A DNA stretch of 64,000 nucleotides, taken from NCBI GenBank assembly GCA_017495115.1, contig JAFEIJ010000045.1, positions 18,884 through 82,883 of the forward strand, given 5' to 3'. Origin of the DNA: Chitinophagaceae bacterium. Its GTDB lineage: Bacteria; Bacteroidota; Bacteroidia; Chitinophagales; JADJOU01. A program made the translations under genes and the position numbers. The notes under the pieces were generated by a model. It did not search any database. It was not told the DNA's origin and saw only the letters and a list, made by a program, of their open reading frames with translations. Shown here one piece after another: positions 28,845 through 31,932 of this stretch (the stretch's first letter is position 1; each line of letters opens with the position of its first letter).

Positions 28845-28941
28845 TATATATAAAGGGTATTTGAATTGTAATTAAAATGAAAATATTTCAAATAGTCGAG
28901 TTTTTAAGATGAATATAAAGGTGTATTCCGATATAAAAGAA

Positions 28942-28949
28942 CAAATATA
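28942..28949 (-). promoter_or_regulatory. -7 promoter box (TAnnTTTG), candidate promoter of the rsmF-like/truA operon
   Basis: TATATTTG on the minus strand lies ~98 nt upstream of the ATG at 28844. Confidence 0.3.
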
Positions 28950-28951
28950 AA

Positions 28952-29176
28952 TTATTTAAAAAAAATACAAGGGTTCGTTTTAGAAAAAAAGAAGAATAGG
29001 CGGGATTCAGCTCTAGTTTCAAACTCTTTAAAATAAACAATTTTCCATGGTTTGAAAGCTTTCGTTGAATGAATGTATCCATTATTGTGTCTTAAAATTC
29101 TTTTAGTTAAATCATTTGTTTGTCCGATATAAAAACGGTCAAATTTTTCAGAATAAAGGATATAAGTGAAAAACAT
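28952..29176 (-). pseudogene. GIY-YIG nuclease-family gene, copy A, C-terminally replaced or truncated
   Basis: The first 56 aa match copy B apart from two substitutions (MFFTYILYSEKFDRFYIGQTNDL.KRILRHNNGY.HSTKAFKPWKIVYFKEFETRA). After residue ~58 the conserved helical tail is replaced by the unrelated RLFFFFSKTNPCIFFK. Confidence 0.6.
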
Positions 29177-29199
29177 AGAAAGATAGAATCTACTAAAAA

Positions 29200-29230
29200 C
29201 AAAAAAAGACTTACCGAAGTAAGTCTTTTT
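29200..29230 (-). terminator. Rho-independent terminator (copy A)
   Basis: The stem AGACTTAC/GTAAGTCT closes a CGAA (minus-strand UUCG) tetraloop. A T-run follows on the minus strand, immediately 3' of the tRNA-Leu fragment. Confidence 0.7.
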
Positions 29231-29231
29231 G

Positions 29232-29309
29232 TACCCCGGGCGGGACTTGAACCCGCACGGACATTACTGCCCATCCCGAATTTAATTCGGGACGCGTCTA
29301 CCAATTCCA
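29232..29309 (-). pseudogene. 5'-truncated tRNA-Leu(UAA)-like copy (lacks tRNA nt 1-10)
   Basis: The D-loop, variable arm, T-arm and 3' acceptor strand are identical to the intact tRNA-Leu. The 5' acceptor strand is absent. The anticodon arm is replaced by a different, perfectly paired 6-bp stem (TCCCGA/TCGGGA) around the loop ATTAAAT. Confidence 0.7.
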
Positions 29310-29313
29310 GAGT

Positions 29314-29574
29314 TTAAATAAAAGGATTAATAAAGTCTTTTATTAAGTTTATAATAAAGTCTTTTGATTTTTTATTTTTTAAATATGTTTCGTAATTCAT
29401 GGATTTCGCTCTAGTTTCAAACTCTTTAAAGTAAACAATTTTCCATGGTTTGAAAGCTTTCGTTGAATGAACGTATCCATTATTGTGTCTTAAAATTCTT
29501 TTAATTAAATCATTTGTTTGTCCGATATAAAAACGGTCAAATTTTTCAGAATAAAGGATATAAGTGAAAAACAT
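29314..29574 (-). CDS. GIY-YIG nuclease-family protein (YhbQ/UPF0213-like, 86 aa), copy B, intact
   Basis: The GIY-YIG core reads YILYS...FYIGQTNDL..R...HN, followed by KEFETRAKSMNYETYLK. The ATG lies 23 nt after the terminator hairpin. Confidence 0.75.
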   Translation of the reverse strand: MFFTYILYSEKFDRFYIGQTNDLIKRILRHNNGYVHSTKAFKPWKIVYFKEFETRAKSMNYETYLKNKKSKDFIINLIKDFINPFI

Positions 29575-29705
29575 AGAAAGATAGAATCTACTAAAAACAA
29601 AAAAAGACTTACCGAAGTAAGTCTTTTTGTACCCCGGGCGGGACTTGAACCCGCACGGACATTACTGCCCACAGGATTTTAAGTCCTGCGTGTCTACCAA
29701 TTCCA
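29401..29705. repeat. Direct repeat copy B (within intact GIY-YIG + terminator + tRNA-Leu)
   Basis: This is the partner of 29003-29309; see that entry. Confidence 0.9.
29598..29628 (-). terminator. Rho-independent terminator after tRNA-Leu (copy B)
   Basis: Same hairpin as copy A, followed on the minus strand by TTTTTTTG. Confidence 0.7.
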
Positions 29706-29715
29706 CCACCAGGGT
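29630..29715 (-). tRNA. tRNA-Leu (anticodon UAA), class II with long variable arm
   Basis: Manual cloverleaf. The acceptor ACCCTGG/CCGGGGT contains one G-U pair. The anticodon stem is CAGGA/TCCTG with loop CTTAAAA, and the T-arm is GCGGG-TTCAAGT-CCCGC. The discriminator is A and CCA is not encoded. Confidence 0.85.
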
Positions 29716-29731
29716 ATAGGTGTCTTTTGTG

Positions 29732-29807
29732 TGGAGCGAAAGACGAGATTCGAACTCGCGACCCCAACCTTGGCAAGGTTGTGCTCTACCAGCTGAGCTA
29801 CTTTCGC
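29732..29807 (-). tRNA. tRNA-Gly (anticodon GCC), CCA encoded
   Basis: The sequence is GCGAAAGTAGCTCAGCTGGTAGAGCACAACCTTGCCAAGGTTGGGGTCGCGAGTTCGAATCTCGTCTTTCGCTCCA, which forms a canonical cloverleaf. Confidence 0.9.
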
Positions 29808-29829
29808 ATTTTTTTAACAAAAACGAGTG

Positions 29830-29837
29830 CAAATTTA
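29830..29837 (-). promoter_or_regulatory. -7 promoter box (TAAATTTGcactc) upstream of tRNA-Gly/tRNA-Leu
   Basis: The TAnnTTTG match lies 23 nt upstream of the tRNA-Gly 5' end. Confidence 0.45.
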
Positions 29838-29885
29838 AAAGAAAAAATTAAAATGCAATGTTTTTTTTATTTTACAAAATAATTG

Positions 29886-29956
29886 AGGTCGAGAGCGGAT
29901 TCGAACCGCTGTACAAGCTTTTGCAGAGCTCTGCCTAGCCACTCGGCCACCCGACC
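29886..29956 (-). tRNA. tRNA-Cys (anticodon GCA)
   Basis: The acceptor is GGTCGGG/CTCGACC and the anticodon arm is GAGCT-CTGCAAA-AGCTT. The T-arm is AGCGG-TTCGAAT-CCGCT, the variable loop is short, and CCA is not encoded. Confidence 0.85.
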
Positions 29957-29993
29957 TTAATATTTTAAAAGAACGCTTTTCAAATTAGGAGTG

Positions 29994-30001
29994 CAAATAT
30001 A
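29994..30001 (-). promoter_or_regulatory. -7 promoter box (TATATTTGcactc) upstream of tRNA-Cys
   Basis: The TAnnTTTG match lies ~38 nt upstream of the tRNA-Cys 5' end. Confidence 0.45.
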
Positions 30002-30032
30002 AAACTATTTTTAACTATGCGTAGTTTTTTTT

Positions 30033-30040
30033 TAAATTTG
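30033..30040 (+). promoter_or_regulatory. -7 promoter box (TAAATTTGcactt) upstream of mrdA
   Basis: The TAnnTTTG match lies 30 nt before the ATG, divergent from the tRNA promoter. Confidence 0.45.
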
Positions 30041-30069
30041 CACTTCAATTTTATATATATAATTTAAAA

Positions 30070-31932
30070 ATGCAAGATATTTTTTCTTCACGAAAGCTTT
30101 TTATTCAAGCAGTTATATTAATAGCTTGCATTGTTTTTATATTAAAATTATTTTATCTTCAAGTTATCGACTCTGGGTATCGAGAAAAAAGTAATGAAAA
30201 TGCCATCAAAGAACTCATCGTTTATCCTCCAAGAGGACAAATTTTTGATCGAAATTCTAAATTAATTGTGCATAATGAAAACTTATTTGATATTATGGTT
30301 ACTTATAATGAAGTTCCTAAAAATATTGATTCTATAAGACTTTGCGAGTATCTTGGTATTGATATGGAATATTATCAAGAGCAAATGAAAAAAGCAAAAA
30401 AACAATCGAGATATAAAGAGTTTCAGTTTTTAAAACAAGTCTCTATAGAAACCTATAATCGTTTTCAAGAACATATTCATAAATTTAAAGGATTTTATGG
30501 TCAAAGCCGTTTTATAAGAAATTATCCCGATTCCTCTGCTGCATTAATTCTTGGAGATATTGGAGAAGTGGACAGTTCACAAATTAAGGCTAGCGAGGAT
30601 TACGTTTATCTTAGTGGAGAGTATATTGGGAAAAATGGCTTGGAACAAAGTTATGAAAAATATTTGAGAGGTCAACGTGGAGTTAAAACCGTTATGGTTG
30701 ATGCATTTGGAAGAGTATTAGGTAGTTTTTCGGAAGGGCAATATGATAAAAAATCTAAAGCGGGAGATGATTTGATTTCTACTTTAGATGTTGAATTGCA
30801 AAAGTTTGGTGAAGCATTGCTAACAAATAAAAAAGGAAGCATTGTAGCTATAGAGCCCAATACGGGAGAGATTTTAGCTTTATGTAGCGGGCCAACATAT
30901 GATCCGAATATATTAAAAGGCAAAATTCGGGGTGAAAATTATGCTAAGTTAGTACGAAATAAAAATAAACCATTATTGAATAGAGCTATTCAGGGCGTAT
31001 ATCCACCAGGTTCTATTTTTAAGGCTGCTGTAGCTTTGGTTGCACTTCAAATGCGCGCGATAGATATTAACTTTACGTATTATTGCCCTGGTTATTATCC
31101 TATCGGAGCCAAAAGGCTTAAGTGTTCTCATGGCCATCCAGCATGTAAAAATGTGATGGAGGCGCTTATGCATTCTTGTAATCCTTATTTTTGTCAAACG
31201 TTTAGAAATTCAATTGATGTAGATAATGCTAAATCTATAGCTTTAGATTACAGCAAATGGTATAAAAATATGATGCGTTTTGGGTTGAATCAAAAATTAG
31301 GATTGGATATAAAAAATGAAAAGAAAGGGAATCTTCCGGACACTGGATTTTATAATCGAATGTATAGAAAGTCTTGGAAACCAACTACTATCATTTCACT
31401 TGGAATTGGTCAAGGTGAAGTTTTGATGACACCGCTTCAAATGGCAAATACATATGCAACTATTGCTAATCGAGGTTATTATATCGTTCCTCATCTGGTT
31501 AAAAATATTGTTAAAGATGGTGTAAAGTATAAAAATCCGAGTATAAAAAAAGTCATGGTGCCCATCGAACAAAGTAAATATAATGCCGTAATCGATGGTT
31601 TGGAGCGCGTTGTGGTTTCTGGAACAGCAAGAAGTTCTAAAATAGAAGGGATTTCTTTGTGTGGAAAAACTGGTACTGCTCAAAATCCCCATGGAAATGA
31701 TCACTCTATTTTTGTAGGATTTGCCCCAAAAGATAATCCAAAAATCGTAGTAGCTTGTGTGGTAGAAAATGCAGGAAGTGGTGGTGGTACTGCGGGCCCA
31801 ATTGTGAGCTTAATTTGTGAAAAATATATCAAAAAGAAATTAAGTCCTGCTCGTGAAGCTACATTTCAAATGATAAAAAATCGTCATATTATAAAATTTA
31901 ATTTAGATGAAGACATCGTCGATAGTCAATAA
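30070..31932 (+). CDS. mrdA: Penicillin-binding protein 2 (elongasome transpeptidase)
   Basis: An N-terminal membrane anchor and PBP dimerisation domain precede the transpeptidase motifs. Those motifs are PGSIFK (SxxK), HSCN (SxN) and CGKTGTA (KTG). Confidence 0.9.
   Translation: MQDIFSSRKLFIQAVILIACIVFILKLFYLQVIDSGYREKSNENAIKELIVYPPRGQIFDRNSKLIVHNENLFDIMVTYNEVPKNIDSIRLCEYLGIDMEYYQEQMKKAKKQSRYKEFQFLKQVSIETYNRFQEHIHKFKGFYGQSRFIRNYPDSSAALILGDIGEVDSSQIKASEDYVYLSGEYIGKNGLEQSYEKYLRGQRGVKTVMVDAFGRVLGSFSEGQYDKKSKAGDDLISTLDVELQKFGEALLTNKKGSIVAIEPNTGEILALCSGPTYDPNILKGKIRGENYAKLVRNKNKPLLNRAIQGVYPPGSIFKAAVALVALQMRAIDINFTYYCPGYYPIGAKRLKCSHGHPACKNVMEALMHSCNPYFCQTFRNSIDVDNAKSIALDYSKWYKNMMRFGLNQKLGLDIKNEKKGNLPDTGFYNRMYRKSWKPTTIISLGIGQGEVLMTPLQMANTYATIANRGYYIVPHLVKNIVKDGVKYKNPSIKKVMVPIEQSKYNAVIDGLERVVVSGTARSSKIEGISLCGKTGTAQNPHGNDHSIFVGFAPKDNPKIVVACVVENAGSGGGTAGPIVSLICEKYIKKKLSPAREATFQMIKNRHIIKFNLDEDIVDSQ

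Follow-up and report, generated by a model that had tools for sequence, protein, structure and literature searches.

Members of the Ssn family (CDD cd10448) are single-domain GIY-YIG proteins of ~94 amino acids. They bind to repeats that form hairpins (NTS: CGTCATTCCCGCG...CGCGGGAATC), upstream of which they cleave single-stranded DNA, and they act on neither double-stranded DNA nor RNA (Chenal et al., 2025; PMC11893778). The criterion used in that study was a BLAST E-value below 1e-10 to N. meningitidis SsnA. Ssn genes are typically flanked by hairpins, a layout that Chenal et al. likened to that of an insertion sequence, and the NTS/SRM repeats are dispersed around the genome in tens to hundreds of copies. 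The Neisseria protein, SsnA, modulates transformation rather than transposing, and the text of PMC11893778 nowhere mentions tRNA or Bacteroidota. This family is the closest characterised system to the locus that we describe here, which lies at a tRNA-Leu(UAA) gene in a 64,000-nucleotide stretch of DNA from a Chitinophagaceae bacterium (contig JAFEIJ010000045.1, positions 18,884 to 82,883; the whole stretch is referred to below as the window and all coordinates are relative to it). We read the locus as two tandem units of an Ssn-like nuclease cassette linked to tRNA, in which hairpin-marked tRNA copies drive recombination and the gain or loss of units, and we give this reading a probability of about one half. 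The nuclease step in it is one that we infer by analogy with the Ssn proteins. As far as we could search, the family to which the cassette belongs is undescribed, and the searchable literature contained no description of either tRNA-linked GIY-YIG cassettes or a tRNA-scaffolded form of Ssn.

The cassette at tRNA-Leu(UAA)

One unit of the cassette consists of the 3' part of tRNA-Leu(UAA), an intrinsic terminator, an open reading frame (ORF) of ~86 amino acids and a 5'-truncated, hairpin-bearing pseudo-tRNA-Leu, all on the minus strand. The array of two units occupies positions 29003-29671 and contains 271-nt direct repeats (29401-29671 and 29003-29273) that are 98% identical and have a period of 398 bp. 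The five differences between the repeats all fall within the ORF part, and the 127 nt of unique sequence that separate them correspond to the ORF C-terminus and nt 11-44 of the pseudo-tRNA. The first repeat begins within the intact tRNA-Leu(UAA) (29629-29715; called by ARAGORN; Rfam tRNA, 58.8 bits), which is presumably functional, and takes in its 3' part from the variable arm onward. Next come a 12-bp intrinsic-terminator-like hairpin (29601-29628; AAAAAGACTTAC-TTCG-GTAAGTCTTTTT followed by a T-rich tail), the intact GIY-YIG ORF of 86 amino acids (29314-29574), a spacer of 4 nt after its stop codon (29310-29313) and the pseudo-tRNA-Leu (29232-29309), which by alignment extends from tRNA nt 11 to the 3' end. 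A second terminator-like hairpin, identical to the first (29203-29230), and a truncated GIY-YIG ORF of 74 amino acids (28952-29176) complete the array. An earlier note, made from the letters of this DNA, had described all of these elements, including the period, the 5 differences in 271 positions and the start of the second tRNA copy, and ARAGORN, repeat alignment and Pfam bear it out on each.

From the variable arm onward the pseudo-tRNA-Leu has the same sequence as the intact tRNA-Leu, and it has no 5' acceptor strand. Its anticodon arm is different: the intact tRNA-Leu has CAGGA-CTTAAAA-TCCTG, whereas the pseudo-tRNA has TCCCGA-ATTAAAT-TCGGGA, a hairpin with a 6-bp stem at 29274-29292 for which the replacement boundaries are t27|t45. 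This hairpin is the sole such site in the 64-kb window and we consider it a candidate nuclease recognition site. The earlier note had viewed the second tRNA copy as a displaced tRNA 3' portion; a 5'-truncated copy is indeed present, but with its anticodon arm replaced by the family hairpin it is not a simple host fragment. ARAGORN, run on both copies as the note had proposed, called the intact tRNA and made no call at 29232-29309. No Rfam family covers the pseudo-tRNA or its hairpin, the one match being a sub-threshold hit to tRNA-Sec (28 bits). Folded as single-stranded DNA, the pseudo-tRNA-Leu gives -17.8 kcal/mol (z = -3.1).

The 86-amino acid protein belongs to the GIY-YIG superfamily of nucleases. 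It matches Pfam PF01541 over residues 1-71 (E=4e-15, 56.2 bits, gathering cut-off 22.6) and keeps the residues that are invariant in the family (Y5, Y16, G18, R26, and H30). Position N31 is nearly invariant, and E62, which is present in the 86-amino acid protein, is invariant among full-length members. An AlphaFold2 model (pLDDT 95, pTM 0.84) has a single compact domain and shows the three-stranded sheet and helices of the GIY-YIG superfamily; in Foldseek searches its best matches among solved structures were UPF0213 (1zg2), then Slx1 (TM-score 0.6-0.7) and the I-TevI catalytic domain. Pfam and the model both show a catalytic domain on its own, with neither a DNA-binding region nor any other domain added to it, and searches of NCBIfam, PADLOC, and PHROGs returned no informative match.

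Only the tRNA-proximal unit is intact. From the distal unit, a deletion has removed the ORF C-terminus and the pseudo-tRNA and has joined the remainder to the promoter region of rsmF. The 74-amino acid ORF scores 48.3 bits against the Pfam GIY-YIG profile, over profile positions 1-60 only. It is homologous over 58 codons and then, after FETRAES, diverges into unrelated sequence, as the earlier note had recognised, with the loss of the catalytic Glu (E62) and no pseudo-tRNA after it. The tail of this ORF and the promoter motif of rsmF (28942-28949) overlap, and the same truncated tail is conserved in relatives (P0003-P0006, L002, and L083-L091).

Contigs that are 95-98% identical to the window share its synteny (PBP2, tRNA cluster, rsmF, truA, pyrG) and differ in the number of units. 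Alleles with one unit, containing the truncated ORF only, are present in L083, L085, L087, and L089, and alleles with two units in the window, L084, L086, L093, and L097; a two-unit layout is also probable in L088 and L091, both of which finish at a contig end with a partial second copy. In their flanks, the one-unit L083 and L087 are the closest to the window (97.6% identity), with the two-unit L084 and L086 at ~95.6%. The polymorphism that the earlier note had proposed to look for among relatives is thus real in the form of one- versus two-unit alleles, but a fully empty site was not seen in any of these relatives, all of which keep at least the truncated copy. Nor does the locus show any of the features that the note had listed as arguing against its interpretation: the arrangement is not fixed, it is not confined to a single copy, and alignment finds the catalytic residues in the intact ORF. 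An assembly artefact was considered and rejected, as L084, L086, L093, and L097 are independent metagenome assemblies that agree on the two-unit layout.

Copies within a genome share strain-specific single-nucleotide polymorphisms (SNPs), which indicates, on the evidence of sequence comparison, that the copies evolve in concert through ongoing recombination or gene conversion. The suggestion in the earlier note that the same site had been hit at least twice is indistinguishable from unequal recombination between units, and SNPs in the homogenised within-genome copies could not separate insertion from deletion. A metagenome scan for the exact pseudo-tRNA of the window found the same locus only, in no new contexts.

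Two of the related contigs have further features. In L093, a MITE-like insertion of ~127 bp (659-785; ends CCAATCTT...AAGATTGG, with TTATA duplicated) lies within the second, truncated GIY-YIG copy, and an L093-type insertion accounts for the alternative N-terminus MYKRYY of P0005 and P0006. In L092 (1-2072), units that are 94-96% identical to those of the window lie between two convergent serine-recombinase genes (one with a Resolvase domain, the other with Recombinase and zinc ribbon domains). The larger recombinase ORF runs antisense into the last pseudo-tRNA, and the scaffold contains an N gap that makes the context uncertain. This is probably another mobile element that is located at, or carries, the array, with the tRNA-like sequence as its att site.

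Within 28900-30100, the only minus-strand TAnnTTTG motifs are those of rsmF (28942-28949), tRNA-Gly/Leu (29830-29837), and tRNA-Cys (29994-30001). As all three belong to other genes, the GIY-YIG ORFs have no TAnnTTTG promoter of their own, in agreement with the earlier note, and for this reason we expect that they are probably expressed by read-through from the tRNA operon. The tRNA cluster is headed by tRNA-Cys(GCA) (29885-29956; ARAGORN; Rfam tRNA, 57 bits), which is followed by tRNA-Gly(GCC) (29732-29807; ARAGORN and Rfam); since the latter is only 16 nt from the downstream tRNA-Leu, the two are probably co-transcribed. A promoter block is common to tRNA-Gly and tRNA-Cys (29825-29868 and 29989-30032; GAGTGCAAAT(A/T)TAAAA on the plus strand, TAnnTTTGCACTC on the minus strand), and a related inverted copy of it faces the PBP2 gene. 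The genes flanking the locus encode PBP2 and an RsmF-type methyltransferase, and gene annotation and Pfam found no integrase or transposase in the window flanks, again as the note had reported.

The family across the FCB group

A family scan of one genome per species identified at least 512 confirmed relatives, and the best 80 loci, located with a 9-sequence alignment as the query, were examined. The suggestion in the earlier note to look for other GIY-YIG ORFs flush with the 3' side of tRNAs was productive. These 80 loci are from Chitinophagales, Saprospiraceae, Flavobacteriales, Bacteroidales, Balneolales, Ignavibacteria, Chlorobiota, Cloacimonadota, and Marinimicrobia. A tRNA on the same strand ends no more than 250 nt upstream of the ORF (~80 amino acids) in 60 of them (median ~52 nt), ten further loci are at contig starts or edges, and in seven the real tRNA is located just downstream instead. 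The linked tRNAs represent 17 anticodon classes. The ORF is usually followed by a copy of the 3' part of the local tRNA, starting near nt 44-47 and 100% identical in most loci. In single insertions (L005, L016, L018, L036, and L077), the end of the duplicated segment coincides exactly with the 3' end of the tRNA, and it is the downstream copy that has the native terminator after it.

Tandem arrays are present in 14 of the 80 loci, with up to seven units. One of them, L052, has seven units of 336 bp, the first two of which are 100% identical, and six of its seven ORFs are intact (unit 5 is disrupted). In L038, five tRNA-Leu-like genes are interleaved with six to seven copies of the ORF. Many of the loci are at contig ends, as expected for multi-copy repeats. 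In a neighbour-joining tree, the proteins group by tRNA type across phyla, and the Gly-Leu(UAA) tRNA context of the cassette recurs in many Chitinophagales and Saprospirales. The family is not phage-borne, based on a search of viral contigs that produced one weak match only.

Across the family, the pseudo-tRNA is a copy of nearly the whole neighbouring tRNA in which one arm has been precisely swapped for a family-specific hairpin, and we accordingly consider the pseudo-tRNA to be part of the cassette. In the 80 loci, pseudo-tRNAs beside the ORFs carry the stem TCCCG(A)/(T)CGGGA whatever the tRNA, and hairpin-grafted pseudo-tRNAs occur on either side of the functional tRNA. There are 138 TCCCG...CGGGA sites in 527 kb, 134 of which are in the 120 kb adjoining the GIY-YIG genes and four in the other 407 kb, a density near the genes that is ~110 times that of the flanks. 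At 56 sites the anticodon arm is precisely replaced, with flanks that match the neighbouring tRNA up to nt 27 and from nt 45; the T arm is replaced at ~29 hairpin sites, and the D loop is replaced or interrupted at a few.

The hairpin consensus is (A/G)CG-TCCCGA-loop-TCGGGA-T, with the stem variant TTCCG/CGGAA in some lineages. The CG that precedes the stem is strand-specific, being found in 44 of 100 distinct hairpins on the tRNA-sense strand versus three on the other strand, and together with the stem it gives CGTC, as in the NTS of the Ssn family. In the Leu-linked clade, the ORF C-terminus, (E)LVDASR, is encoded by the tRNA-Leu D arm and the 5' strand of the hairpin, and the stop codon is in the loop. 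Comparison of hairpin loops with the anticodon loops of the parent tRNAs gave a mean longest shared run of 3.04 versus 2.74 after shuffling (13 of 2000 shuffles reach the observed value), a weak signal on which no conclusion rests.

Several of the 80 loci also have pseudo-tRNA units with no ORF, arranged in tandem with a period of ~100-120 bp upstream of the functional tRNA (L038, 2438-2750; L012, 3200-3880; L058, 3331-3620; L003, 3565-3715; L004, 100-145), and such arrays are also present in L011. In each ORF-less unit, the TCCCGA hairpin stands between nt 1-27 of the tRNA, preceded by the upstream region, and a 3' part that is degenerate, and L012 has a second hairpin inserted in the D loop with GAA on both sides. 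In L005 (4258-4299), the 3' part of the pseudo-tRNA and the intact tRNA-Leu(CAA) differ by a compensatory pair in the T stem (G-C to A-T), and the two halves may derive from different functional alleles. A relative that is 78% identical, L001, has TAA at codon 5 of its GIY-YIG ORF (2698-2712), which is either a pseudogene or a sequencing error. Gene callers often give the ORFs of this family (as in L007, L018, L039, and L046) and its database proteins (as in P0012, P0017, P0023, and P0034) false N-terminal extensions that are translated upstream tRNA (for example, ...ELVDTQDLKSC...).

Proposed mechanism and its alternatives

Based on the analogy with SsnA and the NTS hairpins, we propose that the protein would bind the hairpin when the tRNA-sense strand is single-stranded, as might occur during heavy tRNA transcription, replication or DNA uptake, and would nick nearby. 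Repair of the break via homologous recombination between the tRNA-derived repeats could then add or remove units. After DNA transfer, the conserved tRNA sequence might provide the homology through which the cassette becomes installed in a recipient genome, again at this tRNA gene. If the tRNA sequence acts as a homology arm in this way, then the choice of target would be encoded in the pseudo-tRNA and not in the protein.

More tentatively, the cassette may be a selfish element, of a kind not described before, for which the tRNA gene is at once address and scaffold. In such an element the hairpin would be recognised only as an arm of a cloverleaf-folded, single-stranded copy of the tRNA gene, and nicking would lead to recombination with the real tRNA gene and so to amplification, excision and installation at the same, universally conserved tRNA in other genomes, with no transposase or integrase involved. 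If this possibility is correct, the precise grafting of a hairpin in place of an anticodon arm, T arm or D loop would be the signature of a tRNA-scaffold selfish mechanism.

Several observations weigh against our reading of the locus as an Ssn-like, recombining cassette. The published SRM pattern of the Ssn repeats, HGTCWYN(0-2)YYVSBRHN(0-5)WNVSBRGN(0-2)RNCYNB, has no match in the window and two matches, at chance level, in the 80 loci; as a positive control, it has four matches around the gene for an Azospirillum homologue, which is flanked by four canonical Ssn-related hairpins. The 86-amino acid protein aligns over its full length with this homologue (32% identity over 84 amino acids; hhalign probability 98%, E=7e-14), but the comparison with the UPF0213 protein YazA gave a similar result (probability 98%, E=3e-13), and by profile comparison the family is as near to UPF0213/YazA as to the Ssn-type protein. 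The cassette hairpins differ from those of Ssn in that they are not dispersed, with four in 407 kb of flanks and one in the 64-kb window, these being counts for the loci scanned and not for whole genomes. Repeats of 271 nt could change in copy number by recombination without any nuclease. Our model explains neither the precise replacement of exactly one arm in a local tRNA copy nor the pile-up of ORF-less pseudo-tRNA units upstream of the real tRNA. In addition, the long persistence at tRNA-Leu(UAA) across Chitinophagales and Saprospirales is as compatible with a resident or domesticated gene as with a selfish one.

In relation to these comparisons, small GIY-YIG genes are also located between housekeeping genes in other bacteria. 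They lie between sufB and sufC in Azospirillum lipoferum p3 (L082, 1379-1887, with the four canonical Ssn-related hairpins), between rnc and era in Sphingomonas paeninsulae (L081), and between trmNF and rsmI in B. subtilis (L095; yazA).

The possibility of a resident, domesticated host gene is an improbable one in our estimation. It would be an Ssn-type single-strand nuclease kept beside tRNAs for a cellular role, such as the restriction of single-stranded DNA that enters the cell or the protection of tRNA loci as favoured sites of integration, and the arrays and pseudo-tRNAs would be by-products of recombination. The constancy of the Gly-Leu(UAA) context in many Chitinophagales and Saprospirales is consistent with such a gene, as are the clustering of the proteins by tRNA type, which is expected for old paralogues, the absence of the family from viral contigs, and the fact that Neisseria SsnA modulates transformation without transposing. 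However, a gene of this type is not expected to vary in copy number between near-identical strains, to tolerate broken copies (copy 2 of the window, the stop at codon 5 in L001, unit 5 of L052), or to be so often at contig ends in the manner of a multi-copy repeat. It is also difficult to reconcile with the use of one design at 17 anticodon classes, and arrays of up to seven near-identical ORFs resemble amplification rather than dosage-tuned housekeeping.

We consider it similarly unlikely that the protein is a classical free-standing homing endonuclease, the type of element that the earlier note had favoured, which would make a double-strand cut in a cassette-free tRNA-Leu allele so that repair copied the cassette in, with repeated hits building the array. 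The GIY-YIG fold with intact catalytic residues and the presence/absence polymorphism among close strains are what would be expected of it, the compensatory T-stem pair in L005 looks as if the two halves came from different functional alleles, and the phage gene segB is a precedent for GIY-YIG homing genes in tRNA clusters (PMC13096335). The size of the protein argues against it, as a bare domain of 86 amino acids has no DNA-binding domain of the kind that Seg and Tev enzymes need, and the single-domain Ssn relatives tested so far cut only single-stranded DNA and not double-stranded DNA (PMC11893778). Moreover, the intact tRNA is kept unchanged beside the cassette, where a double-strand cutter would keep cutting its own chromosome, and homing gives no role to the conserved hairpin or the arm-replaced pseudo-tRNAs.

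Passive local tandem duplication, by unequal crossing-over or replication slippage with the nuclease irrelevant and the distal copy decaying, is a poor candidate. Direct repeats of 271 nt offer RecA a good substrate for the gain and loss of units, and both the concerted evolution of the copies and the truncation of the distal one are in keeping with it, but it explains neither the hairpin that replaces the anticodon arm and its 100-fold enrichment nor an architecture that recurs at 17 anticodon classes in several phyla, and the family-wide pattern therefore disfavours it. Least credible is an integrative element that is itself non-autonomous, is mobilised in trans by an integrase from another locus and is built into arrays by serial site-specific integration at the tRNA 3' half. 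In its favour, tRNA 3'-part direct repeats flank the ORF, the native terminator comes after the downstream copy in single insertions, and the L092 units lie between two convergent serine-recombinase genes. Against it, the window flanks have no integrase, and the L092 serine recombinases have no relative in the window or among the 80 loci, in a search that did not take in tyrosine integrases. A single family of integrases would also need to recognise 17 tRNA classes, the pseudo-tRNA keeps part of the D arm upstream of the supposed crossover together with a foreign hairpin, and L092 is better read as a different mobile element integrated at a tRNA-like att site.

Significance and comparison with known systems

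The first description of Ssn nucleases dates from 2025. Our finding suggests that Ssn-like genes of the FCB group are tied to tRNA genes and that their hairpins are grafted into tRNA copies, which provides a concrete, testable setting for such nucleases outside Neisseria. There is also a hint that a gene of 250 nt could persist and spread without a transposase, with conserved tRNA sequence as homology. In practical terms, the cassettes create problems for annotation and assembly, as they generate pseudo-tRNA arrays, contig breaks at tRNA loci and ORFs that are mis-called with translated tRNA N-termini. For biotechnology, the family may offer new pairs of hairpin and enzyme for single-stranded DNA tools.

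Among systems that are associated with tRNA genes, SegB is a free-standing GIY-YIG homing endonuclease encoded in the tRNA gene cluster of T-even phages that cuts double-stranded DNA inside tRNA genes at a loose motif and is associated with many tRNA isotypes (PMC13096335). In phage T6, tandem amplification of a segment containing a tRNA gene and segB depends on the nuclease and on recombination, and the amplified segB copies are C-terminally truncated and non-toxic (PMC13096335). The cassette is similar in having a nuclease gene among tRNA genes and in its link to many tRNA isotypes, and the truncated segB copies parallel the intact and truncated copies of the window. Unlike SegB, the cassette protein is a bare 86-amino acid domain that is encoded on the chromosome and not on viral contigs, and it has a specific hairpin as its partner. 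SegB has ~220 amino acids and a DNA-binding region. More generally, enzymes of the Seg/Tev type have a C-terminal DNA-binding region and a total length of ~200 amino acids or more, neither of which is found in the cassette protein.

Integrative elements that target tRNA genes were reportedly treated by Williams in 2002, and the tandem accretion of cis-mobilisable elements by Pavlovic et al. in 2004. Like these elements, the cassette has an intact tRNA at one end and a tRNA 3'-part copy at the other, and tandem arrays are possible in both. In contrast, it has no integrase and its cargo is one ORF of ~250 nt, and its distal tRNA copy reaches 5' of any plausible crossover, keeps D-arm sequence and has a foreign hairpin arm.

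An analogy between Ssn and the REP/RAYT and IS200/IS605 systems was proposed by the authors of the Ssn study (PMC11893778). The cassette shares with these systems a small nuclease gene that has its own single-stranded-DNA hairpin repeats. REP/RAYT and IS200/IS605 use HUH Y1 transposases with covalent intermediates, whereas GIY-YIG enzymes form none, and any movement of the cassette would for that reason rely on host repair and recombination. The cassette ORF is GIY-YIG rather than HUH Y1, and while REPs disperse, the cassette hairpins stay in tRNA-like scaffolds.

With respect to solved structures, the best likeness of the 86-amino acid protein is to UPF0213 (YazA/YhbQ, BH0048) and the nuclease domain of Slx1. 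Slx1 is structure-selective for branched DNA and differs in that it requires Slx4 and has an additional RING domain. For UPF0213, we know of no report of hairpin repeats or of linkage to tRNAs.

The likeness to the Ssn system extends from the protein to the layout of the locus. The protein of the window is likewise a single GIY-YIG domain, with 86 amino acids and no DNA-binding domain, and its gene is flanked by a conserved hairpin whose core is TCCC(C)G...CGGGA and which on one strand has a 5' flank of the CGTC type, in a repeat-gene-repeat arrangement. The differences are that the cassette hairpin is shorter, with a stem of 6-7 bp fused directly to GTC (CG-TCCCGA-N4-TCGGGA-T), and that the cassette hairpins are grafted into the anticodon, T or D arms of copies of the neighbouring tRNA, remain attached to tRNAs and occur in tandem arrays. 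We class the cassette as a variant of the Ssn hairpin-nuclease theme that is tied to tRNA genes.

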